Shown here: piece after piece, positions 1-12,739 of the stretch
Position numbering within the stretch: the stretch's first letter is position 1
Layout: every line of letters begins with the position of its first letter
Source of the DNA: a virus
Direction: 5' to 3' (one strand)
Length of the DNA stretch: 64,000 nucleotides
IMG/VR virus record: IMGVR_UViG_3300050019_000176
Coordinates: 11,522 to 75,521 of that record
The notes under the pieces: generated by a model
Seen by the model: the letters and a program-made list of their open reading frames with translations, nothing else
Databases searched by the model: none
What the model was told of the DNA's origin: nothing
Made by a program: the position numbers and the translations under genes

Positions 1-38
1 TCGTAGGAGCAGCACCGTCACCAGACGATAAACCCGGC
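1..38 (-). tRNA. Partial tRNA (5' half), probable anticodon UAC (Val), truncated by window edge
   Basis: Minus strand GCCGGGT-TT-ATCGTC TGGT GACGGT-G-CTGCT CCTACGA: acceptor 5' strand, 6-bp D stem with 4-nt loop, start of anticodon arm. Confidence 0.55.
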
Positions 39-39
39 A

Positions 40-129
40 TGGTCCCCGGCCCAGGTGCCGACCCTGGATCTAGCTCCGATCTGGAGAAACGGTTATAGGC
101 CGTCTTGCGGCGCCGGCCGCCCACCGGGG
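40..129 (-). tRNA. Atypical tRNA with anticodon UAU (nominally Ile, reads AUA), long variable arm
   Basis: Acceptor CCCCGGT/GCCGGGG + ACCA; D arm GCGGC CGGC GCCGC; loop CC-TAT-AA; V arm CTCC..GGAG; T arm CCAGG GTCGGCA CCTGG. Confidence 0.75.
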
Positions 130-665
130 GAAGGTTGATCCTTCAATACAATCAAGCCATCATGGATCTCTCCGTGACAGTTAGCGCATGTGAGCACGCA
201 CTTGTCTAGTTCTTTTTTTATCCGAACCCAAGATGCCGTGACTCGGCTGATCGAAAAATCCTTTTGCGATTGGTCACTGTGGTGGAACCCTAATGAGCGC
301 AAGCACTTAGCATACCCGCAGAATTCGCACGCCCCTCCCTTGTATTCTACCGCCTTGAGCTTTAATCGCTTCCTCCACGCAGTTACCCCACGAACCGATC
401 TAGCTTTTGGATCGGAGGATTGTCTGCTCGCCACCCGCGCGTTATGGCGGCATTGATTGCTGCAATATCGGGAGCGCCTTGTAGAGGGGGAACCGCAGAC
501 TGCGCACTTCCCTTCCGGTTTCCGTTTTGGAAACTTCTTGTTATTGTACTTGGCGGCGCATGACTTATTGCAGAACTTCTTAATCCGAACATCCCGCGCA
601 GACTGCCCATCCATCGCCACAATCTTTCGTCGACATGATCGGCAGTAGTGTTGATTCGAAGCCAT
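93..665 (-). CDS. HNH endonuclease with N-terminal Zn-binding repeats
   Basis: CxxC / FCNKSC / YCSNQC motifs, then KGGACEFCG..LGFHH..ELDKCVLTCANCHGEIH; start MASNQH follows TGT-TAATAT-7nt; stop lies in the anticodon loop of the downstream tRNA. Confidence 0.88.
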   Translation of the reverse strand: MASNQHYCRSCRRKIVAMDGQSARDVRIKKFCNKSCAAKYNNKKFPKRKPEGKCAVCGSPSTRRSRYCSNQCRHNARVASRQSSDPKARSVRGVTAWRKRLKLKAVEYKGGACEFCGYAKCLRSLGFHHSDQSQKDFSISRVTASWVRIKKELDKCVLTCANCHGEIHDGLIVLKDQPSPGGRPAPQDGL

Positions 666-688
666 CAATAATATATTAACACGAAAAC

Positions 689-777
689 TGGCTGGCGGAA
701 GAGGATTCGAACCTCCATGCGGGATCACTCCACGGCAGATTAACAGTCTGCTGCCTTACCAGTTAGGCGATCCGCCA
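689..777 (-). tRNA. tRNA-Asn(GUU) with 18-nt variable arm
   Basis: Acceptor TGGCGGA/TCCGCCA, loop CT-GTT-AA, TTCGAAT T loop, CCA encoded. Confidence 0.92.
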
Positions 778-781
778 ATCT

Positions 782-857
782 TGGTGGGTCCAGCGGGGCT
801 CGAACCCGCACATCCCTGAGTAAGAATCAGGTACGCTGCCACTCGCGTCCTGGACCC
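782..857 (-). tRNA. tRNA-Lys(CUU)
   Basis: Cloverleaf, loop TT-CTT-AC, CCA. Confidence 0.9.
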
Positions 858-863
858 GAAACT

Positions 864-938
864 TGGTAGGGGTGACGCGAATTGAACACGCATCGAGAGA
901 TTGAAAGCCTCTCATCCTAACCATTAGACGACACCCCC
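864..938 (-). tRNA. tRNA-Glu(UUC)
   Basis: Loop CT-TTC-AA, CCA. Confidence 0.9.
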
Positions 939-939
939 A

Positions 940-1015
940 TGGCGTCCCCAGCCGGATTCGAACCGGCGATTTCTGGCGTGAGAAGCCAGCGTCCTTGCCG
1001 CTAGACGATGGGGAC
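940..1015 (-). tRNA. tRNA-Glu(CUC)
   Basis: Loop TT-CTC-AC, GGTTCGAATCC, CCA. Confidence 0.92.
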
Positions 1016-1020
1016 AAACT

Positions 1021-1095
1021 TGGCGCGGTGGACGGGTAACGATCCCGCTTCGTCTCCGTAGACAGCGGAGTGCATATCCTACCTGCCCCCACCGC
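1021..1095 (-). tRNA. tRNA-Asp(GUC)
   Basis: Loop CT-GTC-TA, G73, CCA. Confidence 0.88.
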
Positions 1096-1102
1096 GCAAA
1101 CT

Positions 1103-1138
1103 TGGTCGGCCCGCCGGGATTCGAACCCGGAGGGATAC
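1103..1138 (-). pseudogene. 3' half of interrupted tRNA-Arg(CCG)
   Basis: GTATCCCT-CCGGG TTCGAAT CCCGG-CGGGCCG-A-CCA; the acceptor strand pairs with the orphan 5' half at 1667-1714. Confidence 0.85.
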
Positions 1139-1139
1139 T

Positions 1140-1215
1140 TGGTGATCGTGGCTGGATTCTAACCAGCGACCTCTACCTTCGGAGGGCAGTGCTCTTTACG
1201 CTGAGCTACACGATC
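1140..1215 (-). tRNA. tRNA-Arg(CCG), intact copy inside the insertion
   Basis: Acceptor GATCGTG/CACGATC, loop CT-CCG-AA, T loop TTAGAAT, CCA. Confidence 0.88.
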
Positions 1216-1656
1216 AAGACCTAATACTGTAATCCATTTCCATCCACGCTCAAGAGCAGTCTTGATAGTGTGACACTTCGAACACCGAACATCACACTTG
1301 CTGATCTCTTCTTGCCGTCTGCGTTGACTCCACCCTTGCATATTCGAAACACTGGCGACCTTTTTCCCACGCACGTGATCGAATTGAAGAACGAGCGGGT
1401 TTGATTCACCACAATCTACACACGGGTGTTCACGAAAGAACGGCACCATTTCTGCGAAGAATGCTTCCATCCACTTGTCTCTCGAACGATCCGCCTTCAA
1501 GCGGTAGTATTCTTTGTTTCTCTGGTAATGATCCTTGTTATATGCCCTGTGGCATATTTTGCAGTCATCGGATCTTATGCCGCGGGATTTGTACTTGAAT
1601 GAAAACTCATCGACGTTCTGTTCTTTTCCGCAGCGACAACATGTTTTCTTAGTCAT
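1159..1656 (-). CDS. HNH endonuclease
   Basis: MTKKTCCRCG..DCKIC N-terminus; HPCVDCGESNPLVLQFDHVRG..EEISKCDVRCSKCH; start follows TGG-TATACT-7nt. Confidence 0.9.
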   Translation of the reverse strand: MTKKTCCRCGKEQNVDEFSFKYKSRGIRSDDCKICHRAYNKDHYQRNKEYYRLKADRSRDKWMEAFFAEMVPFFREHPCVDCGESNPLVLQFDHVRGKKVASVSNMQGWSQRRRQEEISKCDVRCSKCHTIKTALERGWKWITVLGLDRVAQRKEHCPPKVEVAG

Positions 1657-1666
1657 CCTCCGAAGT

Positions 1667-1714
1667 ATACCATCCTTCGGAGAGATGTGCCCTGTCCAGT
1701 TGAGCGACAGGCCG
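1667..1714 (-). pseudogene. 5' half of interrupted tRNA-Arg(CCG)
   Basis: CGGCCTG-TC-GCTC AACTGGACA GGGC-A-CATCT CTCCGAA GGATG-GTAT; no T arm follows. Confidence 0.85.
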
Positions 1715-1718
1715 AAAA

Positions 1719-1795
1719 TGGTACGCCCGCGAGGATTCGAACCCCGGTCTGATCGTTCGTAGCGATCTATCCTTTCCGGATTGGACGACGGGCGC
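1719..1795 (-). tRNA. tRNA-Arg(ACG)
   Basis: Loop CT-ACG-AA, CCA. Confidence 0.92.
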
Positions 1796-1803
1796 GCGAA
1801 AAA

Positions 1804-1886
1804 TGGTAAGCACCCACCCAGTGATTCCGACACTGGCTCTGTACCGACTCCCGCCGGTCGAGACTCCATGCCTCCCGTGGGTGCAT
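1804..1886 (-). ncRNA. tRNA-like RNA without a normal anticodon loop
   Basis: 8-bp acceptor-like stem GCACCCAC/GTGGGTGC, D-like arm, ACCGGC GGGA GTCGGT hairpin, 6-bp T-like arm, ends ACCA. Confidence 0.6.
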
Positions 1887-1895
1887 AAGCATAAA

Positions 1896-1971
1896 TGGCT
1901 GGCCGCCCAGGGTACGATCCTGGAACCTCTGCGTTCAGAGCGCAGCGCGCTGCCAATTGCGCCAGCGGCCA
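1896..1971 (-). tRNA. tRNA-Gln(CUG)
   Basis: Loop CT-CTG-AA, U1-A72, CCA. Confidence 0.92.
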
Positions 1972-1972
1972 A

Positions 1973-2046
1973 TGGCCGGGAGGGAGCGAATCGAACGCTC
2001 GAAGCTGGCTTCAAAGACCAGCGGCTTACCATTAACCTACCTCCCG
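1973..2046 (-). tRNA. tRNA-Gln(UUG)
   Basis: Loop CT-TTG-AA, CCA. Confidence 0.9.
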
Positions 2047-2049
2047 AAT

Positions 2050-2123
2050 TGGGGTGACCGATCGGTTCGACCCGACAACCTCCGGGGCCACAACCCGGCG
2101 CTCTACGTTTGAGCTACGGCCAC
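2050..2123 (-). tRNA. tRNA-His(GUG)
   Basis: Loop TT-GTG-GC, C73, CCA; atypical 6-nt T loop, no encoded G-1. Confidence 0.85.
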
Positions 2124-2126
2124 ACT

Positions 2127-2201
2127 TGGTGCCGGAAGCGGCGCTCGAATCCGCGTCACTGGCTTTTCAGACCAATGCTCTACCGTCTGAGCTATTCCGG
2201 C
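2127..2201 (-). tRNA. tRNA-Phe(GAA)
   Basis: Loop CT-GAA-AA, CCA. Confidence 0.9.
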
Positions 2202-2206
2202 GAAAT

Positions 2207-2286
2207 TGGTGGACCTCCAGAGAATTGAACTCTGCTGACTATCTTCCTTGCAAGGGAAGCGACCACCCCATGCAGTCTCGAGGCCC
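2207..2286 (-). tRNA. tRNA-Ala(UGC)
   Basis: Loop CT-TGC-AA, G3:U70 identity pair, 8-nt variable region, CCA. Confidence 0.92.
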
Positions 2287-2291
2287 AAAAT

Positions 2292-2364
2292 TGGTAGCGG
2301 GGGTCGGTGTTGATCCGACGCGGCTGGGTTTATGAGGCCAAGCTGTGAACCGTCTCTCCCCGCA
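2292..2364 (-). tRNA. tRNA-Met(CAU), initiator-like, weak anticodon stem
   Basis: Loop CT-CAT-AA, 1:72 mismatch (U:U), GCGGGG acceptor, CCA. Confidence 0.7.
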
Positions 2365-2372
2365 ATAAATTC

Positions 2373-2452
2373 TGGCATACAACCTCACGGCCCGGTATGC
2401 CGGCGGGTCGCGGCATGGACTGGAGTAGGGCTCACAGCGCCGCAGACGTCGA
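2373..2452 (-). ncRNA. Unassigned structured RNA within tRNA operon
   Basis: Two hairpins (GCGGCG..TGCCGC; GGCATAC..GGCC GTGA GGTT..GTATGCC) filling a tRNA-sized slot and ending in CCA. Confidence 0.4.
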
Positions 2453-2455
2453 ACT

Positions 2456-2529
2456 TGGTGCGTCCCCGAAGAGTTGAACTTCGATTGCTCCCCTATCGAG
2501 GGAGAGTCCTGCTATTGGACGAGGGGCGC
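2456..2529 (-). tRNA. tRNA-Ile(GAU)
   Basis: Loop TC-GAT-AG, CCA. Confidence 0.85.
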
Positions 2530-2530
2530 A

Positions 2531-2606
2531 TGGGGCCGGTGGCGGAACTCGAATCCGCGGATTCTTCCTTACCAAAGAAGCGGTGAACCATCCCACCTCC
2601 ACCGGC
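2531..2606 (-). tRNA. tRNA-Thr(GGU)
   Basis: Loop TT-GGT-AA, GCC acceptor start, CCA. Confidence 0.88.
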
Positions 2607-2611
2607 GAAAC

Positions 2612-2686
2612 TGGGGCCAGATCGGAGAATCGAACTCCGGTCACAGGGATACGAATCCTGCACTCTGCCGACTGAGCTAATCTGGC
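2612..2686 (-). tRNA. tRNA-Thr(CGU)
   Basis: Loop TT-CGT-AT, CCA. Confidence 0.9.
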
Positions 2687-2687
2687 A

Positions 2688-2762
2688 TGGAGCCGGGCGC
2701 CGAACTCGAAGCGGCCTCACTGACTTACAGGGCCAGCGCATCGCCATCTATGCTTGCCCGGC
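2688..2762 (-). tRNA. tRNA-Thr(UGU)
   Basis: Loop CC-TGT-AA, CCA. Confidence 0.88.
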
Positions 2763-2835
2763 TGGAGCGGATGGAGGCATCGAAGCCTCGTATCGACCTT
2801 GGCAAGGTCGCGCTCTACCATTGAGCTACACCCGC
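2763..2835 (-). tRNA. tRNA-Gly(GCC)
   Basis: Loop TT-GCC-AA, GCG start, U73, CCA. Confidence 0.92.
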
Positions 2836-2842
2836 AGAAACT

Positions 2843-2916
2843 TGGAGCGGACGGGGGTACTCGAAACCCCTTCTCTGGGTTGGAGGCCCAGGGCACACCC
2901 TATATACCACGCCCGC
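2843..2916 (-). tRNA. tRNA-Gly(UCC)
   Basis: Loop CC-TCC-AA, GCG start, U73, CCA. Confidence 0.9.
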
Positions 2917-2933
2917 CTTACTGCCTACACTCT

Positions 2934-2974
2934 GTTGTCAAAGACCCTGCCGCGCCTTCATGCCACTGCGCGGC
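2934..2974 (-). promoter_or_regulatory. boxB-like hairpin followed by boxA-like antitermination element
   Basis: GCCGCGC..GCGCGGC hairpin then GGTCTTTGACAAC, resembling rrn boxA (GCTCTTTAACAA). Confidence 0.65.
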
Positions 2975-2979
2975 GAACT

Positions 2980-3056
2980 TGGTCGGGGCGGCAAGATTCG
3001 AACTTGCGACCTTCTGGTCCCAGGCCAGACGGGTTAAACCACTTCCCTACGCCCCG
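2980..3056 (-). tRNA. tRNA-Pro(UGG)
   Basis: CGGGGCG acceptor, loop CC-TGG-GA, CCA; first gene of operon A. Confidence 0.92.
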
Positions 3057-3062
3057 AAAATC

Positions 3063-3091
3063 AAAAAGGCCCGAATCTTTCGATCCGAGCC
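3063..3091 (-). terminator. Intrinsic terminator (attenuator) between leader A and tRNA operon A
   Basis: GGCTCGGATC GAAA GATTCGGGCC followed by TTTTTGATTTT. Confidence 0.85.
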
Positions 3092-3120
3092 CACTGGAAA
3101 ACCGGAAATCCCAAGTGGGC

Positions 3121-3213
3121 TTACGGAGCATCGCGGGCGACTGGATTCATCGCCGGTGCGATGGGTTCCGTCCCCTGCTGCTTCCTTGTGCCGAAATGGA
3201 ATATGTATCTCAT
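3121..3213 (-). CDS. Leader peptide A, 30 aa: MRYIFHFGTRKQQGTEPIAPAMNPVARDAP
   Basis: ATG 10 nt downstream of TATACT; stop overlaps the antiterminator 5' strand; not reported as a separate ORF in the track. Confidence 0.75.
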   Translation of the reverse strand: MRYIFHFGTRKQQGTEPIAPAMNPVARDAP

Positions 3214-3250
3214 GTACGATTTCAGTATATCACGGTTTCGCCGAATGCAA
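3214..3250 (-). promoter_or_regulatory. sigma70-type promoter of tRNA operon A
   Basis: TTGCAT-15nt-TATACT with extended TG; TATACTGAAATCGTA is identical to the operon B promoter. Confidence 0.8.
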
Positions 3251-3258
3251 GCACTTTT

Positions 3259-3343
3259 TGGCGGAAGATGGCCGAATCGAACGACTCCGCTTGCGCGGAC
3301 CCCGGAATTCGAACCCGGTTGCCCACCATGGGCGGCATCTTCC
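3259..3343 (-). tRNA. tRNA-Ser(CGA), 8/4 fold
   Basis: GGAAGATG/CATCTTCC 8-bp acceptor, 4-bp T stem, long V arm, loop TT-CGA-AT. Confidence 0.88.
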
Positions 3344-3347
3344 GAAC

Positions 3348-3432
3348 TGGCGGAGAGCACCAGAGTCGAACTGGCACCCTTTCGGGGCTCCGGTTTTCCA
3401 GGCCGGCCGGGATCCACATCCCCGTACTCTCC
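3348..3432 (-). tRNA. tRNA-Ser(GGA), 8/4 fold
   Basis: GGAGAGTA/TGCTCTCC, T stem CCAG/CTGG, long V arm, loop CT-GGA-AA. Confidence 0.88.
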
Positions 3433-3439
3433 AAACTTA

Positions 3440-3524
3440 TGGCCGCGGGCGAAGGAATCGAACCCTCATCCCGAAGGAGCGCCAGTACTCAAGACTGGTG
3501 GCGGACCATCCGCCCGCGCCCGCG
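3440..3524 (-). tRNA. tRNA-Ser(UGA), 8/4 fold
   Basis: CGCGGGCG/CGCCCGCG, T stem AGGG/CCTT, long V arm, loop CT-TGA-GT, G73. Confidence 0.82.
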
Positions 3525-3525
3525 G

Positions 3526-3599
3526 TGGAATGGGGATCGGGAATCGAACCCGACATAACAGCTTTGCAGGCTGCCCTCTAGCCGATTGAGTTTCCCCAC
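3526..3599 (-). tRNA. tRNA-Cys(GCA)
   Basis: Loop CT-GCA-AA, U73, CCA. Confidence 0.9.
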
Positions 3600-3600
3600 G

Positions 3601-3671
3601 CACCCCAGCGACGATTCGAACGCCGAAAATCCGCTTTGGAGACGGACCACCTCACCATCGGTAACCGGGGC
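3601..3671 (-). tRNA. tRNA-Trp(CCA), no encoded CCA end
   Basis: Loop CT-CCA-AA, G73, abuts tRNA-Cys. Confidence 0.85.
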
Positions 3672-3676
3672 AAACT

Positions 3677-3760
3677 TGGTAGGCTCGGTGGGATTCGAAC
3701 CCACAGGGGAAAACGCTCTTGAGGCGTTTGGTTGTGCCAATTCACCTTATCCACGAGCCT
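3677..3760 (-). tRNA. tRNA-Leu(CAA), short variable region, enlarged D loop
   Basis: Loop CT-CAA-GA, A73, CCA. Confidence 0.85.
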
Positions 3761-3766
3761 AAAACT

Positions 3767-3843
3767 TGGTGCGCCGCCCGAGATTCGAACTCGGAAAAGT
3801 CAGGGCCTAAACCTGATGGATTTGCCAATTTTCCTAGCGGCGC
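3767..3843 (-). tRNA. tRNA-Leu(UAG), short variable region
   Basis: Loop TT-TAG-GC, A73, CCA. Confidence 0.88.
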
Positions 3844-3849
3844 ATAACT

Positions 3850-3937
3850 TGGTGAGTGCGGATGGATTTGAACCACCGTGGCCCCGAAGGACAGAAGGGT
3901 TACAGCCTTCCCGTTTCAGCCGCTCACGCACGCACTC
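3850..3937 (-). tRNA. tRNA-Tyr(GUA)
   Basis: Loop CT-GTA-AC, long V arm, CCA. Confidence 0.92.
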
Positions 3938-3938
3938 A

Positions 3939-3950
3939 TTGTCAAAGATC
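3939..3950 (-). promoter_or_regulatory. boxA-like element
   Basis: GATCTTTGACAA directly after the first tRNA of operon B. Confidence 0.65.
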
Positions 3951-3952
3951 TT

Positions 3953-4041
3953 TGGCGGAGAGCCGGCGACTCGAACGCCGGAGTCCCGAAGGAAGCACGC
4001 GTTTAGCAGACGCGCCGGACGGCCCACTGTCCATGCTCTCC
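3953..4041 (-). tRNA. tRNA-Ser(GCU)
   Basis: GGAGAGC acceptor, loop CT-GCT-AA, long V arm, CCA; first gene of operon B. Confidence 0.92.
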
Positions 4042-4054
4042 GAAACCTGGGCTC

Positions 4055-4153
4055 CTATAAACTCGACAGGGATGATAGGTGCCCGGACGGACACCACAAA
4101 TACTCGGCGGAGCGCCGATAGGAAAGAAATCCGCGATTGGAATTCTTGTGCAT
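4055..4153 (-). CDS. Leader peptide B, 32 aa: MHKNSNRGFLSYRRSAEYLWCPSGHLSSLSSL
   Basis: ATG 9 nt downstream of TATACT and overlapping the upstream stop (TAATG); TAG 13 nt before tRNA-Ser. Confidence 0.75.
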   Translation of the reverse strand: MHKNSNRGFLSYRRSAEYLWCPSGHLSSLSSL

Positions 4154-4458
4154 TACGATTTCAGTATAGCACGGGTACGTTCGGTGTCAAGTGGTATACG
4201 TTTCGAGGCATGGATCGGCGCAAACATGCTTCGCATCCTGCGGCGCTCCTCGGCCCACTTCGGGTCCGCCAGTTCCCGGCGCCGGTCGCGTTCATTCGAT
4301 ATTTCTCCCAACCGATAGAGAGCCTGTCCCTCCCACGAACTTTCTCCGTGATCATCTTCATCCAGCATGCCGACGCCGGCGTCGAGCAATTCCTGTTCCA
4401 GGATATAGAGTTCTGCATCCGTAAAACTTGTGACTTTTGCTTGGTAGAAGTTAGGCAT
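4153..4458 (-). CDS. Hypothetical protein
   Basis: ORF MPNFYQAK.., acidic/helical; stop overlaps leader B ATG. Confidence 0.6.
   Translation of the reverse strand: MPNFYQAKVTSFTDAELYILEQELLDAGVGMLDEDDHGESSWEGQALYRLGEISNERDRRRELADPKWAEERRRMRSMFAPIHASKRIPLDTERTRAILKS
4154..4190 (-). promoter_or_regulatory. sigma70 consensus promoter of tRNA operon B
   Basis: TTGACA-16nt-TATACT with extended TG. Confidence 0.88.
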
Positions 4459-4661
4459 TACCGAGGCTCCGAGGGCCACCCATACCACCGATGGTGCAGG
4501 TCAGCCGGACAGATTTTCTTCTCCTCGCCATCGTGCGGCACGGCGGCATGGAGGATCTTCAAAAGTAGGCGGGGCCATCCGAGAAGAGGTCGGGTGGCCC
4601 CGATGGAGGAGAATAGACGTACCACTTGACTTCATGCTACCACATTTTCTCCAAAATAAAA

Positions 4662-4691
4662 CTGGACATTTGGACAATCCTGACGCACAAT
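4662..4691 (+). promoter_or_regulatory. Putative promoter overlapped by tandem TGGACA half-sites
   Basis: CTGGACATTTGGACA; TGGACA-17nt-CACAAT upstream of AAGGAG..TTG. Confidence 0.5.
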
Positions 4692-4709
4692 CAGGGTAAG
4701 GAGAAGAAC

Positions 4710-5129
4710 TTGACAGCAAATACCCTTCCGACATTCAAGTGCGGGACGTGGTTCGATCCCGAGATTTTCGGCCGGCTCGATGCCGCCATCCAGAAAGAAG
4801 AGGCCGACAAGATTCGCGGCGCTCCGGAGTGCCTGTATTGCGGGCGTCCGTCAACCACCCCGCAAGGCATGTGTGGACATCACTTCGCCCGCAGTCTGCG
4901 TTATGGAGATCCACTCGCCGATGGGCCAATGGATCGGGGGTGCGAATTCCCGGGTTGCACGCGTCCGCATCTCGCCCGTGGCATGTGCGCCACGCACTAT
5001 TCTCGGTGGAAGCGTGGCCGGACTATTCAGACCACGTCTGCGGTGGTGGAGTCCCTACCGGTCCAGATGGACTTCGGGTGGATTGTACCGAACCATGCCG
5101 AGTTATACGCGGCGTCGAGTTGCGTGTAG
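4710..5129 (+). CDS. Zn-binding repeat protein (motif of the type found N-terminal to phage HNH proteins)
   Basis: Two C-x2/4-C-x8/9-GMC-x2-H(F/Y) motifs; RBS AAGGAG before TTG. Confidence 0.65.
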   Translation: MTANTLPTFKCGTWFDPEIFGRLDAAIQKEEADKIRGAPECLYCGRPSTTPQGMCGHHFARSLRYGDPLADGPMDRGCEFPGCTRPHLARGMCATHYSRWKRGRTIQTTSAVVESLPVQMDFGWIVPNHAELYAASSCV

Positions 5130-5677
5130 TTCCGGTCGACGTAGCGTCCAGTGAAGCGGCAATCCCATTCCTCCATCCATTCGTCGACTGGCCAAGTGAT
5201 ATTCCACTCGAACCAGTTCAGTGCACGGCGCCACCACGGCTTTGGTGTTGGCGTTATCAACTGGTAGATCGCTTTCTCCGTAAATACGTAGAGAGATCCG
5301 TTGAGTGATACGGGTTGGCCGGGAGGCATCATGGCGTTACCAAAAACGTATAGCTCTCGATCGCCTGCGCGTCCGCCGTACTCACCACGATTCGCTGAAT
5401 GCCGGGCACGGGGATGGTCAACCGGTGGCTCGGCGATAGCGATGAAGATCTCTCCATCGGGGACCGGGAGCACTGCCGGGAGCGGATCGGGAGACTTGAC
5501 TATCGCCGTCTTCCCCCACGTGGATCCGTAGACGTGGATCAGAAACTTGTCGATTACGCCGGAAAACTTGTTCTCCAGGCAGTAACCACAGATTCCGCGC
5601 ATTTGGCTTGTGCCTTCCCGGAAGATGTAGACGGACTCTCGCATTTCGCAGATACAACACGGTTTCCCGGTTTTCAT
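5027..5677 (-). CDS. Hypothetical protein (N-terminal CxxC..CxxC)
   Basis: 216-aa ORF, ATGA-coupled to the upstream gene. Confidence 0.65.
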   Translation of the reverse strand: MKTGKPCCICEMRESVYIFREGTSQMRGICGYCLENKFSGVIDKFLIHVYGSTWGKTAIVKSPDPLPAVLPVPDGEIFIAIAEPPVDHPRARHSANRGEYGGRAGDRELYVFGNAMMPPGQPVSLNGSLYVFTEKAIYQLITPTPKPWWRRALNWFEWNITWPVDEWMEEWDCRFTGRYVDRNYTQLDAAYNSAWFGTIHPKSIWTGRDSTTADVV

Positions 5678-6030
5678 GAGAGTGGGGGGTAGGGTGCTAG
5701 CGGGAGTGTGGAATCAAAATTCCAGACCTTCATGATAGAATCTTTCGACTGAGTGGAATGGATGGTGAACCCGAAGGTATACCCGCACCGCGTGTTATAT
5801 GCCTGCACCCACAGTCTTGGGTCAGATGCGCGCATGGACCCATCGGGCAATCGATGGATGCTGACGATCTTCTTTGGGCCGCCGTCGATGGAACATGTGA
5901 GCGATCCCACCACTGGGGAGAACTTCCTAAACTGTCGCAATGCCCGCATCTCCGGCGTCCAGGGGATGCGCTTCGCCGCCTTCGCCATGAATGGGGCGAA
6001 CAGTGTTGCCAGAAACCATCGTCTCAACAT
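5674..6030 (-). CDS. Hypothetical protein with RR-hydrophobic N-terminus
   Basis: MLRRWFLATLFAPFMAKAA; TACAAT-6nt-ATG. Confidence 0.6.
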   Translation of the reverse strand: MLRRWFLATLFAPFMAKAAKRIPWTPEMRALRQFRKFSPVVGSLTCSIDGGPKKIVSIHRLPDGSMRASDPRLWVQAYNTRCGYTFGFTIHSTQSKDSIMKVWNFDSTLPLAPYPPLS

Positions 6031-6097
6031 GCCTTCATTGTACACCCGCGTGCAAAGGTTCTGGACATTTGGACAGGACTTGGTTTACCATAAAGGC
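6031..6097. promoter_or_regulatory. Divergent promoter region with tandem TGGACA half-sites
   Basis: Leftward TACAAT (6037-6042), rightward TGGACA-18nt-TACCAT, CTGGACATTTGGACA at 6061-6075; gene orientation switches here. Confidence 0.6.
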
Positions 6098-6120
6098 ATG
6101 GGAATTGTGGGTCGGCGCTG

Positions 6121-6330
6121 ATGGCAAAGAAGCGTGTGAAGGACCCATGCTCCTACTGCCACCGAGCGGCGACGGTGCGGTGTGATGTGGAGGGGTTGAC
6201 CATCGGTTCGCTGGAATGCGGTCGCGCCTGCTGCCCACGGCACTCGACGAAGTTGCCGAACGGGCAGGTACGATGCTTGGGGCATGAGGGCGTTGGGGAG
6301 CAGGTGTCCAATGTCTTGCCCAAGACATGA
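6121..6330 (+). CDS. Small Cys-rich Zn-finger protein
   Basis: CSYC..CD..CGRACCPRH..CLGH. Confidence 0.65.
   Translation: MAKKRVKDPCSYCHRAATVRCDVEGLTIGSLECGRACCPRHSTKLPNGQVRCLGHEGVGEQVSNVLPKT
6305..6327. repeat. Dispersed palindrome copy 1
   Basis: TGTCCAA-TGTCTTGCCCAAGACA. Confidence 0.9.
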
Positions 6331-6512
6331 AGGCTCTTGACTACTGGACAAGCTGTGCCGGGAAAATCCCACTGACCGGGAAGGTGGCGCGGAAGGTGGC
6401 GAAGAGGATGACGAGCCGAGACAAGGAGATATACGTCTGCTATAGATGTAGGTTCTGCGGGGGTGGCACTTGGCACGTGGGGCATAAACGAGAGGATAAA
6501 GTAGATGGATAA
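6327..6512 (+). CDS. Small Zn-binding protein
   Basis: CAGK..YRCRFCGGGTWHVGH; ATGA overlap. Confidence 0.65.
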   Translation: MKALDYWTSCAGKIPLTGKVARKVAKRMTSRDKEIYVCYRCRFCGGGTWHVGHKREDKVDG

Positions 6513-6738
6513 CACTCCAATTACGGGATGTAGTGGATGCGCCACTACGGGTGGCCGGATGGGTTGTCCGCATCACGGGACGCTGGCCATTACACCGCTA
6601 AGTCCAGCAACGGTGGGCTGGGTCTGTCCAAAGTGCGGTAGGGGGAATTCCCCACTATTGATGACCTGTCCATGTAATTTGTTGAAGATGTGGGACTATG
6701 CTCCGCCTCCAGCCAGACCGGGCGGTGGGGGTTGGTAA
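6505..6738 (+). CDS. Small Cys-rich protein
   Basis: GCSGC..GCPHH..GWVCPKCGRGNSP..CPC. Confidence 0.65.
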   Translation: MDNTPITGCSGCATTGGRMGCPHHGTLAITPLSPATVGWVCPKCGRGNSPLLMTCPCNLLKMWDYAPPPARPGGGGW

Positions 6739-6932
6739 TGGCTGAAGACATCTTCGTTTCCCCGGAAAAAGCCAGTGAGATGACGGGCATCTGTGGGCGC
6801 ACGCTGCGCCGATGGATCGAGGCCGGTCGATGTCCTGGCCGGCGCGGGCCGACGGGTCGCTACTCGGTGCCGATGACCTGGATACGCCAGCACCTGAAGG
6901 GGAAGGACGATGCCATTGCTGCCGCTGAGTAA
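6738..6932 (+). CDS. Excisionase/MerR-like winged HTH DNA-binding protein
   Basis: VSPEKASEMTGICGRTLRRWIEAGRCPGRRGPTGRYSV. Confidence 0.8.
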   Translation: MAEDIFVSPEKASEMTGICGRTLRRWIEAGRCPGRRGPTGRYSVPMTWIRQHLKGKDDAIAAAE

Positions 6933-7719
6933 CGAGCAGATGTTGGAGTGCGGGTACGGCACTACCCCGCTGGCCACCGGGAATCTATTTTTCGATCCAG
7001 AGACCGTCCCACCGGTTGGCTCCCGGCTGGTCTGCCTCCGCGAGAACACGATCCTTCAGCTTTTTCCGGCGGACGGTGCCGCGTGGTACGCGTGGTACAT
7101 CTGCGTCTACCTCGTGAAGGGTCGTTTGATTAACGGTACAACGTATCCGGCTGGCTCCAACGGGATTCCGCCGACCATCAGGAACATGTATCGGAACGGG
7201 TTGCTGCCGCGTGACCCTGGATTGCTGCTCACGGAGGGCGGCAGTCGAGATGTCTACCCTGTTCTCTTCGGCGAATGGTACGTGCGAGCGTGTGCCAGAA
7301 CCTGGAGCGCGAACCCCTATCGCCGGACTATGGCGGAACAGCCAGCGTTCTTCGCCCCCGCTGGCGTGGATGCGCCGGAAGAGATTGGCGTGCCGAGCCT
7401 GATCCAGTTTGTGCGAGACGATGGTGAGGAGCCAAACGTGGCCGGACGGCAGGTGGCGGAGGCGATGAAGCGGGAGGATCCAGTACCGGACTGGGGATCG
7501 ACCTGGGCCGGTAACGTCTTCCCTACGTACGGACAACAGTTTCGCTTGCAGACGGACGGTATCCCGTTTAGGACCTACGCGTACTCAGGGACGATGGGTT
7601 CTGGTCCATGGCCATCGACGCCTGTGGTGACACGGGAGGAGCGCCCTCGTCCTTCGGTGCCAATCCCCGACATCACCGAAGCACCTAAGAGAAAAATTCG
7701 TCTATGCGAGGAGAACTGA
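6910..7719 (+). CDS. Hypothetical protein
   Basis: 269-aa ORF with RBS, in operon. Confidence 0.7.
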   Translation: MPLLPLSNEQMLECGYGTTPLATGNLFFDPETVPPVGSRLVCLRENTILQLFPADGAAWYAWYICVYLVKGRLINGTTYPAGSNGIPPTIRNMYRNGLLPRDPGLLLTEGGSRDVYPVLFGEWYVRACARTWSANPYRRTMAEQPAFFAPAGVDAPEEIGVPSLIQFVRDDGEEPNVAGRQVAEAMKREDPVPDWGSTWAGNVFPTYGQQFRLQTDGIPFRTYAYSGTMGSGPWPSTPVVTREERPRPSVPIPDITEAPKRKIRLCEEN

Positions 7720-9396: not shown

Positions 9397-9747
9397 ATGC
9401 AACTCATTCCACTCGGGCAGATTTTGCCGGGGGCTACTTATGCCACTGTTTCCGTTCCTGTCTTGTCGAGCGCCCTATTGGCCGCCCACCCCGAACTGGC
9501 GAATAAAGACGTCAATGTAGTCTCCATCCAGTTCGATCCGGGCAGCACCGGCGGTGGTCGAATCTACATCTGCAACAGCGCTGCTGCACCGGCGTCCAAC
9601 CGTTCCAACGTTATTTATACTATCCAGTCTCCAGGAGACTCATGGCCACTGGTCGGTCACGCGTTGAACGACGTGGAGTTGGGTGGCCTTTACATCGGCG
9701 CCGACAATGCCGACGACTACGCCTGCGGGTACGTGCGGAGGGCCTAA
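9397..9747 (+). CDS. Small beta-rich virion-type protein
   Basis: RBS AGGAGG; beta-strand pattern. Confidence 0.65.
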   Translation: MQLIPLGQILPGATYATVSVPVLSSALLAAHPELANKDVNVVSIQFDPGSTGGGRIYICNSAAAPASNRSNVIYTIQSPGDSWPLVGHALNDVELGGLYIGADNADDYACGYVRRA

Positions 9748-9751
9748 TCCC

Positions 9752-11371
9752 ATGAAGCGCATTGGATTTCTATTCGCGTTGATGTCCTCCCTGTGCTTGG
9801 CACAGAACCCGGTGACATCCAACGCCACAAGCATTTGGGGCAGGCGGATAGCCTCGACCGCGCCCAATGATGGATATACGTTGGTCTGGAGCGCCAGCCA
9901 GGGGAAATGGATCGTCTCCGCCGGCGTAGCGTCGGCCATCGCCTGTGTGGGCACTCCAGGGAATACCACAGGCTCCTACCGCCAGCAGTGTCAAACGACA
10001 GCGGGAGCGGTCTACGCCTGCAACAATGCGGCAGGATGCACGGTGGCGGGAGACTGGGTTGCAGTAGGCGGCGACGCAACCAGCACCCCCGTCTGCAATC
10101 CAACGACGGCCAGTGGCTCAACCTATGCCTGCCCATCCGCCACGCTTTCCACCTACACCGCAGGTGGTTTGGTGGCGTTCACCCCCGATGTGGACTGCGC
10201 GGGCGGTGCAACCACGATTGCCGTGGCTGGGCTGTTGGCGAAGTCGTACAAACTCGCTGACGGGTCCACCAACCCATCGGCAGGGACCTGCACGGCGGGC
10301 AGTTTGCAGATCCTCGAATACGACGGCACTGTGCTTCGGCTCATCTATCCATTCGACGCTACGCATTCCGGCGGTCTATACTTCTCGGGGTTTACGTCCG
10401 GAGGCACCGGCATTGCGGCGCGAGATACGGCGGGGACAGCAATCACGTGGTATCTGCCGACGACGAATGGCTCGGCAGGGCAGGTGCTGTCTGATTCTGG
10501 CGTGGTGGCTTGCGACGCCAAGTTGCCTGCGTTCATGCCGCAGACTTGTCATCTGCTCGCGTGGATAGCGGCTGGATCTGGGACTGGATCTGGGACGGTT
10601 ACTTCTATCGCCACAACCGCGCCACTCACGGGCGGAACGATCACCGGGAGCGGAACCATCGCGCTCGACACAACCAAAGTCCCACAGAAGTATTTTGGCA
10701 CGGCTGCGCCTGGTAGCGTGACCGGAAATCTACCCGGCGATTTCTTTACCGACACGACAGCCCATAACCAGTACGTCTGTAATGCGCCCTCGGGAACTGC
10801 CGCACCAGCCTGCACGTCGGTTACAGCGGCGGGATGGCTGCTGGTGAATGGAGGAGGCGGAACGGGTGTTGGGCGGGCGGTGCTTTCCCCCACCTACACG
10901 GCCATCGGGGACGGCGGATGCCAAGACCAGACCGCGACATGGACCGGAGTCGGTACGGGAGACTCTGTGATCCTCGGTCCTCCCTCCAGTCTTGCGGCTG
11001 GCATGATCGCAAATGGTTGGGTGAGTTCGACGAACAACGTGACCATCCGCCTGTGCAACACCAGCGGGGGCGCGGTGACTCCGGGAGTACTCAGTTTTAA
11101 TGGCACGCTGGCGATCTACAATCTTTCCGCGACAGCAGCCATCGATTTCACCTCCATCGCTGACGGGTCTTGCCTGTCGAACAATCTGACGGTGACCGGT
11201 GCGGCGGCGGGCGATCCAGTGACACCCAAGTGGCCTGCGGCTCTCGAATCCGGATTGATCGGCAGCATGGTCACTTCGGCCACGAGCACTGTAGCGGTTC
11301 GGCTTTGCAATTGGAGTGGCGCGGCAGTCGATCCGGCCAGCGCGACATTTGGGGCGAGCATCGCCAAATAG
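9752..11371 (+). CDS. Tail/head fibre-like protein with signal peptide
   Basis: MKRIGFLFALMSSLCLAQ; G/T/A/S-rich; fibre motifs APNDGYTLVWSASQGKW, GTVTSIATTAPLTGGTITGSGTI; paired Cys. Confidence 0.75.
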   Translation: MKRIGFLFALMSSLCLAQNPVTSNATSIWGRRIASTAPNDGYTLVWSASQGKWIVSAGVASAIACVGTPGNTTGSYRQQCQTTAGAVYACNNAAGCTVAGDWVAVGGDATSTPVCNPTTASGSTYACPSATLSTYTAGGLVAFTPDVDCAGGATTIAVAGLLAKSYKLADGSTNPSAGTCTAGSLQILEYDGTVLRLIYPFDATHSGGLYFSGFTSGGTGIAARDTAGTAITWYLPTTNGSAGQVLSDSGVVACDAKLPAFMPQTCHLLAWIAAGSGTGSGTVTSIATTAPLTGGTITGSGTIALDTTKVPQKYFGTAAPGSVTGNLPGDFFTDTTAHNQYVCNAPSGTAAPACTSVTAAGWLLVNGGGGTGVGRAVLSPTYTAIGDGGCQDQTATWTGVGTGDSVILGPPSSLAAGMIANGWVSSTNNVTIRLCNTSGGAVTPGVLSFNGTLAIYNLSATAAIDFTSIADGSCLSNNLTVTGAAAGDPVTPKWPAALESGLIGSMVTSATSTVAVRLCNWSGAAVDPASATFGASIAK

Positions 11372-11380
11372 GAGACAGTC

Positions 11381-12739
11381 ATGAAAACGAAACTCATTTT
11401 ACTTTGCGCGCTCCTGGCGATGAGCGCCTGGGCGCAGAACGCAGTGAAGCGCGATCTGGGATGCCCTACGGTGTCATCGGGGAGTGCCACAACGTACGCC
11501 TGTAATATTGCCGTGAACCCCACCGCATACGTTGTGGGAGAGACATACTACTTCGTGGCGGATGTCGCGAACACCACCTCTGGCGGAAATCCGACGATCA
11601 ACTTCAACGGCATCGCGGCCAAGAAGATCGTCAAGGTGCAGGGGGCGATTACCACGGAGTTGGTCGCCAACGACATCAGGGTCGGGCAAGTGGTGGTGAT
11701 GCGTTACGACGGCACCAACATGCAGATGACCAGCCCGCTCGGGAATGCTCCGGCAGGCGTCACTAATGGGCATGTGGTCGCGGTCGTGCTCACTTGCGCT
11801 GGCACGAACTCCAGCACCACGGCGGAAGTCTGCAACACTTCGCCCACATTTACTCCGGTAGCTGGCGACACGATCATCTATCAGCCGATCACAGCCAATA
11901 CCTCGACGTACACACTCAACGTGAACTCGCTCGGTGCGAAGGCGGTCACAAAGCGAGGCATGAATGCTCTCATCGCGGGCGACATCGCGGCGTCGCCATT
12001 CCAAGTGCTGGTGACTTACGACGGCATCCAATGGGAGATGCACAACGGAGCAAACCAGGTCGCGTATACGGGCGCGGCGAACACGTTCACGGCGATACAG
12101 ACGTTTAACAATCCTATTCTCGCAGCATATGGGAATGCTAGTAGCGTAAGTTACGGATTCACGGGCACCAACGGGGGACGCACTGGGATGTTCACGACAG
12201 GGGCAGATGTTGTGAAATTTGCGGGAGGCGGATCTTCGATGCTCTCTATATCCGTAAATCAAATGAACCTTCGAGACTCATGGAACGGACTTGGATATAC
12301 TTTGGGCGTAAATGCTGATAACTTCGGCCTTTCCGGTAACTCAAACCGTGCTGGAGGACCACTCATAATTCAGCCTGAAGCGAGCACTGGAAGTGCGTCT
12401 GCTGGGTATTTGTCCCTCCGTGTGGCTCCATCTGGTACGAGCGGAGTCAGCGTGAATCCTTTTATCGAGGTCGTTAGAATACTTGCAACCGGCAAAATAG
12501 GATTTGGTCCCCTTAACACCGCATCCACGAGCACACTGGACATTACTGATAAGACGGCGACTATTGGCGCAACCCTCGTTACCATTGGGCTCGGGGCGGC
12601 AGACTCGGCGACTACCGCTACGTTTGTCAATGCGGGTACCACCAAGTCGGCTGGTTACCAGTCCAGCGATGGAAGCGCAGGTGCAACCGTGACAACATGC
12701 ACCGGCTACAAGAACGGTCTTTGTGTAAGCGGGAGCTAA
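11381..12739 (+). CDS. Tail fibre-like protein with signal peptide
   Basis: MKTKLILLCALLAMSAWAQ; two ANT..TINxN..AK....L.AGDI..YDG modules; C-terminal YKNGLCV. Confidence 0.78.
   Translation: MKTKLILLCALLAMSAWAQNAVKRDLGCPTVSSGSATTYACNIAVNPTAYVVGETYYFVADVANTTSGGNPTINFNGIAAKKIVKVQGAITTELVANDIRVGQVVVMRYDGTNMQMTSPLGNAPAGVTNGHVVAVVLTCAGTNSSTTAEVCNTSPTFTPVAGDTIIYQPITANTSTYTLNVNSLGAKAVTKRGMNALIAGDIAASPFQVLVTYDGIQWEMHNGANQVAYTGAANTFTAIQTFNNPILAAYGNASSVSYGFTGTNGGRTGMFTTGADVVKFAGGGSSMLSISVNQMNLRDSWNGLGYTLGVNADNFGLSGNSNRAGGPLIIQPEASTGSASAGYLSLRVAPSGTSGVSVNPFIEVVRILATGKIGFGPLNTASTSTLDITDKTATIGATLVTIGLGAADSATTATFVNAGTTKSAGYQSSDGSAGATVTTCTGYKNGLCVSGS

Follow-up and report, generated by a model that had tools for sequence, protein, structure and literature searches.

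The sequence analysed here is a 64,000-nucleotide (nt) window, positions 11,522 to 75,521, of the IMG/VR virus record IMGVR_UViG_3300050019_000176. The record is 75.5 kb in length, about 77% complete, and of peat origin. The left end of the window carries 27 co-oriented transfer RNA (tRNA) genes on the minus strand, and the whole record carries 30. The array is divided into two sub-operons, and each is headed by a short open reading frame (ORF), called here leader A and leader B. This report describes leader B, which precedes tRNA-Ser(GCU), the first gene of its sub-operon. Leader B has its own promoter, is enriched in codons for the amino acids of the tRNAs behind it, ends in a run of rare Leu and Ser codons, and is followed by no intrinsic terminator. 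Its frame and start are conserved in bacterial arrays of the same gene order. We propose tentatively that it gauges ribosome speed.

Leader B and its codon content

The leader B ORF (4055–4153, minus strand) has 32 codons and a TAG stop, and its product is MHKNSNRGFLSYRRSAEYLWCPSGHLSSLSSL. The codons are ATG CAC AAG AAT TCC AAT CGC GGA TTT CTT TCC TAT CGG CGC TCC GCC GAG TAT TTG TGG TGT CCG TCC GGG CAC CTA TCA TCC CTG TCG AGT TTA TAG. Behind the ORF lie tRNA-Ser(GCU) (3953–4041, minus strand) and the rest of sub-operon B (3259–3937, minus strand), which encodes tRNA-Tyr, tRNA-Leu(UAG), a tRNA-like gene with a CAA anticodon, tRNA-Trp, tRNA-Cys, tRNA-Ser(UGA), tRNA-Ser(GGA), and tRNA-Ser(CGA). 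A preliminary description of this DNA, made from the sequence alone, had placed the stop 13 nt ahead of tRNA-Ser(GCU), which begins at 4041, and had noted that the ATG overlaps the stop of the upstream gene as TAATG. Both observations are correct.

The same description had stated that the ORF samples every Leu and Ser isoacceptor class. Read directly, the five Leu codons are CUU, UUG, CUA, CUG, and UUA, one per isoacceptor class, and the probability that five Leu codons fall in all five classes is 0.006 under phage codon usage. This pattern is true of the phage ORF, but the homologues described below cover just three to four classes. The Ser codons are UCC (five times), UCA, UCG, and AGU, and the Ser tRNAs downstream have the anticodons GCU, UGA, GGA, and CGA, as described. 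Four Ser classes from eight Ser codons are unremarkable (P = 0.32).

Ser, Tyr, Leu, Trp, and Cys make up 17 of 31 residues in the leader B frame, whereas the two remaining frames reach 4 of 30 and 6 of 30. The count of 17 has P = 0.0002 against dinucleotide shuffles and P = 0.0055 against mononucleotide shuffles, and it falls in the top 0.09% of the 78,056 stop-free 31-codon windows of the phage genome. The seven rare Leu and Ser codons at the end of the ORF, CUA UCA UCC CUG UCG AGU UUA (4058–4078, minus strand), rank by codon commonness among the bottom 0.5% of seven-codon windows. Within this tail, the core UCAUCCC is invariant and common to all bacterial homologues. Codons UAU UUG UGG UGU (Tyr-Leu-Trp-Cys; 4091–4102, minus strand) follow the order of the downstream tRNAs Tyr, Leu, Trp, and Cys, a match that was noticed post hoc.

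Leader A has a different content. Its unit (3057–3234, minus strand) contains a promoter/start cassette, a 30-codon ORF (3213–3121), an antiterminator, and a terminator (3092–3067). The terminator is strong, and its T-tract abuts tRNA-Pro. Phage and bacterial arrays alike have a textbook attenuator at leader A. Ser, Tyr, Leu, Trp, and Cys account for 1 of 29 residues in phage leader A, and the split in composition between leaders A and B has a Fisher P of 1e-5. The corresponding split in the bacterial arrays has P = 2e-4. Leader A is conserved together with its terminator, and it also avoids the amino acids of sub-operon B (5 of 37 and 1 of 29).

Promoter and start

Promoter P_B (4163–4190, minus strand) consists of TTGACA, a 16-nt spacer, and TG-c-TATACT, an extended −10 element, and lies within the last codons of the upstream gene, which encodes 101 amino acids. 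It matches the sigma-70 consensus at 11 of 12 positions, carries the additional TG, and is the sole such site in 7 kb. The leader B ATG lies 9 nt past the −10 element and starts at the tenth nucleotide; the transcript is predicted to start near 4156. From promoter geometry, the 5′ untranslated region (UTR) is predicted to be 0–3 nt, which would make the ORF near-leaderless. The ORF has no Shine-Dalgarno sequence.

The 15-mer TATACTGAAATCGTA, which covers the −10 and start region, has one exact recurrence, at 3229–3215, at leader A. There the ATG follows TATACTGAAATCGTA one base further on, and the similarity between leaders A and B ends at the ATG. A single phage promoter/start cassette, CCGTGnTATACTGAAATCGTA(C)ATG, thus stands before both leaders (3211–3234 and 4151–4173, both minus strand). 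The bacterial arrays have two unlike promoters before the two leaders. A replacement of both promoters in the phage, with the ORFs kept, is suggested. A search of viral contigs with the 15-mer returned chance matches only; L007, which holds two copies, proved to be an unrelated duplicated gene.

Homologous arrays in Acidobacteria

Homologous arrays were found with a 30-mer from tRNA-Ser(UGA), which matched 40 metagenome contigs. The same ordered array is present in 39 of these and runs Ser-GCU, Tyr, four Leu, Trp, Cys, three Ser, Pro, and onwards, with up to 35 tRNAs. It was also found in a Candidatus Solibacter metagenome-assembled genome (MAG) and in two more genomes of that family. The bacterial contigs carry 34–35 tRNAs and the phage 30. 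The array is flanked by ordinary Acidobacteria chromosomal genes (PEP-CTERM protein, DUF3738, glycine-cleavage T protein, and alcohol dehydrogenase), and other contigs of the Solibacter MAG hold another 28 tRNA matches.

Among 301 genomes sampled from the family, 3 have the leader, one of them the Solibacter MAG itself; among 400 others drawn from the whole phylum, 1 gave a match, and that match is marginal. A leader-core pattern gave one true match, L151, among 35 matches in GTDB genomes, and none in viral contigs. In viral contigs, a 17-mer from tRNA-Ser returned chance matches only, and protein-based searches for related phages found none. The array is an accessory, patchily distributed long array of peat and soil Acidobacteria. 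The phage array is a diverged copy of it, and we infer that Acidobacteria are the likely host phylum of the phage.

The Leu tRNA set is smaller in the phage. Bacterial arrays (L102, L103, and L114) have Leu tRNAs with anticodons GAG, CAG, CAA, and UAA, whereas the phage has UAG (3767–3843) and the CAA-like gene only, and CUU and UUA codons have no phage tRNA. Phage leader B retains CUU, CUG, and UUA codons despite this reduced set. The CAA-anticodon (Leu, UUG) tRNA-like gene (3760–3677, minus strand) has good acceptor, anticodon, and T arms, a 3′ ACCA, and an over-long D region. It was missed by ARAGORN and scored 27.8 bits with the Rfam tRNA model, for which the cut-off is 29.

Conservation of leader B

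Upstream of tRNA-Ser(GCU), about 30 contigs carry TTGACT, 17 nt, TATAGT, six variable bases, ATG, and a 26-codon ORF (MATTTQRLHLTLSCPSSALSSLSLYW). The stop of the bacterial ORF lies 8–10 nt ahead of the tRNA. Two diverged lineages have the leader ORFs MDTTTKRLSGLLSCPRLSYLSSQLYW and MDTATKRLQLSPSCTRLSYLSSRLYW, the promoter elements TATGAT and TAAGAT, and six-base spacers that differ in sequence. Across four different −10 boxes with differing spacers, the ATG is invariant and always exactly 6 nt past the box. In three bacterial lineages it is the seventh base past the −10 box, which on promoter geometry alone is the expected +1.

The frame is open, and the ORF is 26 codons long in all three lineages. 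Insertions and deletions are multiples of three within the ORF and are +1 or +2 directly after the stop. In its C-terminal half, WCPSGHLSSLSSL, the phage product is a homologue of SCPSSALSSLSLYW, and the two are separated by the synonymous exchanges CCG/CCC, CUA/UUA, CUG/CUA, and UCG/UCA. At one position, Leu CUU has given way to Ser AGU, a switch that requires three base changes. Phage and bacterial leaders are unrelated in their N-terminal halves. The ratio of non-synonymous to synonymous change (pN/pS) between lineages is 0.75–1.3. Because this ratio accompanies a persistent open frame, a 26-codon length, and a Ser/Leu/Tyr/Cys/Trp content of 14–15 of 25, composition and translatability are kept rather than peptide sequence. 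Within the close clade, 9 synonymous and 13 non-synonymous distinct changes were counted, the recurrent ones being synonymous, and variable columns are distributed 6/5/8 over the codon positions.

The bacterial leaders form a 5′ hairpin, ACAAC.../...GUUGU, that is retained through changes. Their 3′ half is pyrimidine-rich and unstructured, with predicted folding energies of −2 to −3 kcal/mol that are no better than those of shuffles. In L102 and others, AGUUGUC at codons 13–15 is complementary to ACAACU at codons 4–5 and also to GACAACU in boxA about 150 nt downstream. This double complementarity, with a chance probability of about 0.04, is absent from the phage. One metagenome contig, L133, lacks the usual leader promoter. 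About 210 nt upstream of its tRNA-Ser(GCU), there is an in-frame fusion between the N-terminal helix-turn-helix of a LysR-type regulator and the 3′ half of the leader ORF.

RNA structure

No stem with a U-tract lies between the leader B stop and the tRNA, as first described, and no terminator was found in any homologue. The lack of an intrinsic terminator is a conserved difference of leader B from leader A. The preliminary description had also drawn a hairpin, GGGCACCUAU...AUAGGAGCCC (4049–4084, minus strand), around the last seven codons and the stop. This hairpin can be drawn, but it is absent from the minimum-energy and centroid folds and is not conserved. Its z score is −1.5, which is not significant, and bacterial leaders have no counterpart of any stability. 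It is outcompeted by a second hairpin, GGUGUCC/GGGCACC (4095–4078, minus strand). Neither of the two is a terminator and neither is conserved. Homologues keep the frame and the diversity of Ser and Leu codons, and not the hairpin, the reverse of the outcome that would have spoken against the preliminary description. No mutually exclusive antiterminator and terminator pairings were found at leader B.

A third hairpin lies in the middle of the ORF. It has the form UCGGCG-CUC-CGCCGA with the tail GTATTTGTGG (4104–4118, minus strand), is weakly terminator- or pause-like, and is present in the centroid fold. The terminator scan gave 7 such sites against 6.6 expected in shuffles.

Control through folding of the first tRNA, one of the mechanisms first put forward, was not upheld. 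The acceptor stem of tRNA-Ser(GCU) has a predicted probability of 0.08 with leader B attached, and a higher one when a ribosome occupies the last codons, but 38% of shuffled leaders give an equally low predicted cloverleaf probability. After this control, leader-tRNA misfolding was dropped as evidence.

boxA elements and Rho

A boxA-type element, AGATCTTTGACAAT (3938–3951, minus strand), lies in the spacer between tRNA-Ser(GCU) and tRNA-Tyr; the spacer is 15 nt and consists of A followed by AGATCTTTGACAAT. A second, TCTTTGACAACAGA (2931–2944, minus strand), lies between tRNA-Pro and tRNA-Gly. The shared sequence TCTTTGACAA has 2 copies in the window against 0.07 expected. Both elements follow the first tRNA of a sub-operon. 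The element after tRNA-Ser(GCU) is kept in 31 of 33 homologous arrays; a second site lies before tRNA-Gly.

The boxA of ribosomal RNA (rRNA) operons was established by direct inspection of the rRNA leaders at eight loci of the array-bearing bacterial family. The sequence GATCTTTGACAAT(CTGG) lies 60–114 nt upstream of 16S in 6 of these 8 loci, and 5 of the 8 carry GATCTTTGACAA(C/T) in the 16S-23S spacer. The 16S leader and the 16S-23S spacer are the classical positions of boxA. The array elements are identical to the rRNA motif of this family over 12–14 nt. Compared with the consensus GYTCTTTAANA (PMC5725501), which is gamma-proteobacterial, AGATCTTTGACAAT matches at 9 of 11 positions. A search of three genomes with a loose boxA pattern did no better than its control, and five of its matches had no rRNA with them.

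The RNA-binding domain of Rho was found in 2 of 3 array-bearing genomes, which are incomplete, and NusB genes are present in the array-bearing genomes. Leaders of the main bacterial clade have a skew of C over G (C/G 2.6) that places them in the top 0.7%. Other lineages stand at 4–8%, the two diverged bacterial ones at 6–8%. Phage leader B is not C-rich (C/G 1.2, 31st percentile).

The preliminary description had also named boxA antitermination and Rho loading as possible outputs. The first is supported by the rrn-type boxA, but this element lies outside the leader, in the spacer after tRNA-Ser(GCU). Both this boxA and the main-clade leaders, which are C-rich, G-poor, and unstructured, make Rho loading plausible, but the phage leader does not share their C content.

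Neighbouring features

The upstream gene (4153–4458, minus strand), whose stop overlaps the leader B ATG, has a GGAG Shine-Dalgarno sequence. Its 101-amino-acid protein has one homologue, with 56% identity, on a 1.6-kb ENA contig; searches with this protein found no relatives among viral contigs or JGI metagenomes. No Pfam family matched the leader B ORF or the neighbouring genes, and an Rfam scan of window positions 1–7000 returned tRNAs only. Putative HNH-type ORFs in the phage array were read from Cys/His motifs, and Pfam gave no HNH match.

A GC-rich palindrome, GGGGCCACCCGACCTCTTCTCGGATGGCCCC (4548–4590), lies between a divergent gene (4626–5129, plus strand) and the upstream 101-amino-acid gene (minus strand), and is followed by a weak T-run on the minus strand only. 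An ORF of 562 amino acids (9683–11371, plus strand) was first taken as a terminase. This assignment was rejected, as the protein is fibre-like and shares only short domains. Between 10% and 29% of its length is common to many soil and peat proteins that are fibre-like or neighbours of PEP-CTERM proteins, including one from an Acidobacteriota MAG, and no Pfam family was matched.

Read records from other peat runs (X2-4 and X5-29) contain variants of the Ser tRNA block over 3255–3528 at 87–91% identity. The same records hold 151-nt pieces identical to the phage as well, which shows that peat samples repeatedly contain this phage and arrays related to its own. Reads from four other peat and lake runs gave no coverage of 4059–4180.

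Proposed mechanism and alternatives

Leader B is probably translated and selected for its codon content. Our preferred reading, to which we give roughly one chance in three, is that leader B acts as a gauge of ribosome speed, in which slow decoding of rare Ser and Leu codons decides whether RNA polymerase survives Rho before it reaches boxA. On this reading, the accessory array common to phage and Acidobacteria would have a near-leaderless, translated mini-gene, leader B, in front of its first sub-operon. A ribosome would load at the 5′ AUG while the RNA emerges, and would then meet the rare Ser and Leu tail as well as Tyr, Trp, and Cys codons, that is, codons for the amino acids of the nine tRNAs downstream. 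The read-out would not be an intrinsic terminator and would most likely lie within the approximately 105 nt from the ORF stop to the rrn-type boxA. Rho would be kept from loading for as long as a slow ribosome covers the leader's unstructured 3′ half. Polymerase that reaches boxA would become termination-resistant through Nus factors and complete the sub-operon. With fast decoding, the ribosome would depart, the leader would be left bare, and more transcripts would end early.

The place given to Rho in this scheme follows from the position of boxA. Because boxA is present, Rho would seem to threaten transcription of the long untranslated array. Because the leader and the first tRNA precede boxA and are thus unprotected, a Rho read-out in the stretch of about 105 nt would be the simplest terminator-free option.

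Several points weigh against the ribosome-speed gauge. On promoter geometry, the predicted 5′ UTR of the phage transcript is 3 nt and not 0. A Rho loading site is not evident from the base composition of the phage leader (31st percentile) or of the two diverged lineages (6–8%). Substitutions within the close clade appear only weakly coding-like. The composition statistics were framed after the pattern was seen, and the P values are guides only. About half of the leader B codons specify amino acids served by the other sub-operon. Cleavage by RNase P would separate the leader from the transcript and could pre-empt Rho.

A wider version of the proposal is more doubtful. It holds that the arrays of Acidobacteria and phage share a previously undescribed two-tier circuit, in which a leaderless mini-ORF whose codons mirror the tRNAs is followed by an rrn-type boxA lock after the first tRNA of each sub-operon. 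Leader B would then be a terminator-less, Rho-dependent attenuator that senses the supply of Ser and Leu (and Tyr, Trp, and Cys) tRNAs and, through decoding speed, feeds the tRNA genes back on.

The alternative that survives best, although we regard it as rather unlikely, is that leader B is translated but is no switch. Sub-operon B would be constitutive from a strong promoter and only sub-operon A gated by an attenuator; translation would cover the leader until RNase P removes it, or the ORF would be a remnant, in slow decay, of an older attenuator. The absence of a terminator, an antiterminator, or a significant alternative fold in every lineage agrees with this, as does a peptide that evolves almost neutrally, and boxA alone could shield the array from Rho. 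A functionless ORF, however, should lose its frame, its +1 start, and its skewed composition, none of which has been lost in any of the four promoter contexts or in the phage. The rare-codon tail and the three-base replacement of Leu by Ser also argue for selection on codon identity.

That leader B is untranslated is unlikely. It would then be a plain 5′ leader RNA whose pyrimidine-rich, single-stranded stretch is recognised by Rho, RNase E, or a protein and reads as Ser and Leu in one frame by chance. UCAUCCC and UUUAU(U/A)GG are indeed conserved at the base level, and UUUAU is kept in the phage in another frame, after a 1-nt shift near the ORF end. The lack of a Shine-Dalgarno sequence and the within-clade substitutions, which are not clearly three-periodic, point the same way. 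Against this account stand the ATG, which is invariant at the predicted +1 despite variable spacers, the restriction of the ORF to in-frame insertions and deletions, its equal length in three lineages, and an enrichment that remains frame-specific after dinucleotide shuffling. The phage leader, moreover, is not pyrimidine-rich, yet its Ser and Leu codons, including AGU, are kept.

Control of processing is less probable again, and we consider it quite unlikely. A ribosome at the ORF end, 8–13 nt from the tRNA, would control how readily RNase P or RNase E reaches the first tRNA and hence precursor maturation or decay, not transcription. The geometry suits it: the RNase P cleavage site lies 13 nt past the stop in the phage and 8–10 nt past it in bacteria, so that a ribosome terminating there would cover it, and the AU-rich single-stranded UUUAU is present at the ORF end in all lineages. 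Such control would delay output rather than set it and would affect the first tRNA only, and the predicted misfolding between leader and tRNA is no better than with shuffled leaders.

Coupling attenuation of the pyrBI kind at the mid-ORF hairpin (4118–4104 with GUAUUUGUGG), in which a close ribosome prevents a weak terminator or pause hairpin and a late or absent one permits it, is very unlikely: the hairpin was flagged as terminator-like by the scan, occurs in the centroid fold, and has Leu-Ser-Tyr codons 10–12 just 5′ of its stem, but its U-tract is poor, such matches are as frequent in shuffles (7 versus 6.6), bacterial homologues have a different hairpin with no U-tract, and the Ser and Leu tail, which lies downstream, would play no part.

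Comparison with known systems

Leader-peptide attenuation is a textbook mechanism. Leader B resembles the attenuators of this class (hisL, leuL with rare CUA codons, thrL, ilvL, and multivalent types) in having a short ORF at the transcript start with clustered rare codons that report on the downstream product. It has the short ORF in the 5′ leader and the codon enrichment tied to the product, and has no intrinsic terminator. Leader A of the same array has the full hisL/leuL-type design. Unlike hisL and leuL, leader B lacks a terminator/antiterminator pair, controls tRNAs and not enzymes, is leaderless, and samples several amino acids and isoacceptors; as elsewhere, control and leaderless status are predicted features.

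Rho-dependent attenuators with leader ORFs include tnaC of tnaCAB, mgtL/mgtP, corL, and toiL-topAI, and tna has a boxA-like sequence beside the stop codon. Leader B resembles the tnaC type as a short ORF with a putative Rho entry site at or near its 3′ end that ribosome stalling would mask, so that an intrinsic terminator is unneeded. It differs from that type in that phage leader B has no skew of C over G, a structured tRNA lies downstream, and Rho action is proposed only. The stall signal of leader B would be tRNA supply, not a small molecule or peptide arrest. Likeness to pyrBI/pyrE lies in a leader ORF that continues through a hairpin, so that the distance between ribosome and polymerase matters; those leaders end in a true intrinsic terminator and sense uridine triphosphate, not tRNA.

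boxA also occurs in arrays of clustered regularly interspaced short palindromic repeats (CRISPR). The rrn-type boxA has the consensus GYTCTTTAANA in gamma-proteobacteria, and boxA is also present at suhB (PMC5725501). The array motif is like rrn boxA in its 12–14 nt of identity to the rRNA leader and spacer boxA of the host family and in its place early in a long untranslated array. It differs in position, since the array copies sit after the first tRNA of each sub-operon and not behind the promoter, and in setting, since they lie in a tRNA array and in a phage. They are putative Nus factor sites.

The nearest published system is the Anabaena trn operon (L-array). It is induced by translational stress, and its regulation was attributed to direct repeats spanning the −10 and start site, which probably bind a repressor (PMC8421152). 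The arrays share about 30–35 supernumerary tRNA genes in one orientation, a patchy distribution, associated homing endonuclease genes, which are putative in the present phage, and phage copies. In contrast to the present arrays, no leader ORF, attenuator, or boxA is reported for Anabaena (PMC8421152). No paper that describes leader peptides or boxA elements for tRNA operons or arrays was found in a literature search, the nearest being that on the Anabaena array. What is new here is a conserved, terminator-less member of a leader pair in a system that is bacterial (Acidobacteria) as well as viral, together with ORFs that are leaderless on promoter geometry and an rrn-type boxA after the first tRNA of each sub-operon.

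Significance

How cells and phages set the levels of individual tRNAs is poorly understood, and the only published control of an accessory array that was found is the Anabaena promoter operator (PMC8421152). Promoter, ORF (leaderless by prediction), first tRNA, and boxA together span about 250 nt, which makes the leader B locus a compact, conserved test system, present in a phage and in its likely host phylum. It could address whether ribosome speed on given codons feeds back on tRNA gene transcription, how a leader ORF regulates without an intrinsic terminator, and whether long untranslated tRNA arrays are under the same surveillance by Rho and Nus factors as rRNA and CRISPR arrays. If the proposed mechanism is true, the phage would make its tRNA supply on demand, for example upon depletion of host tRNAs.

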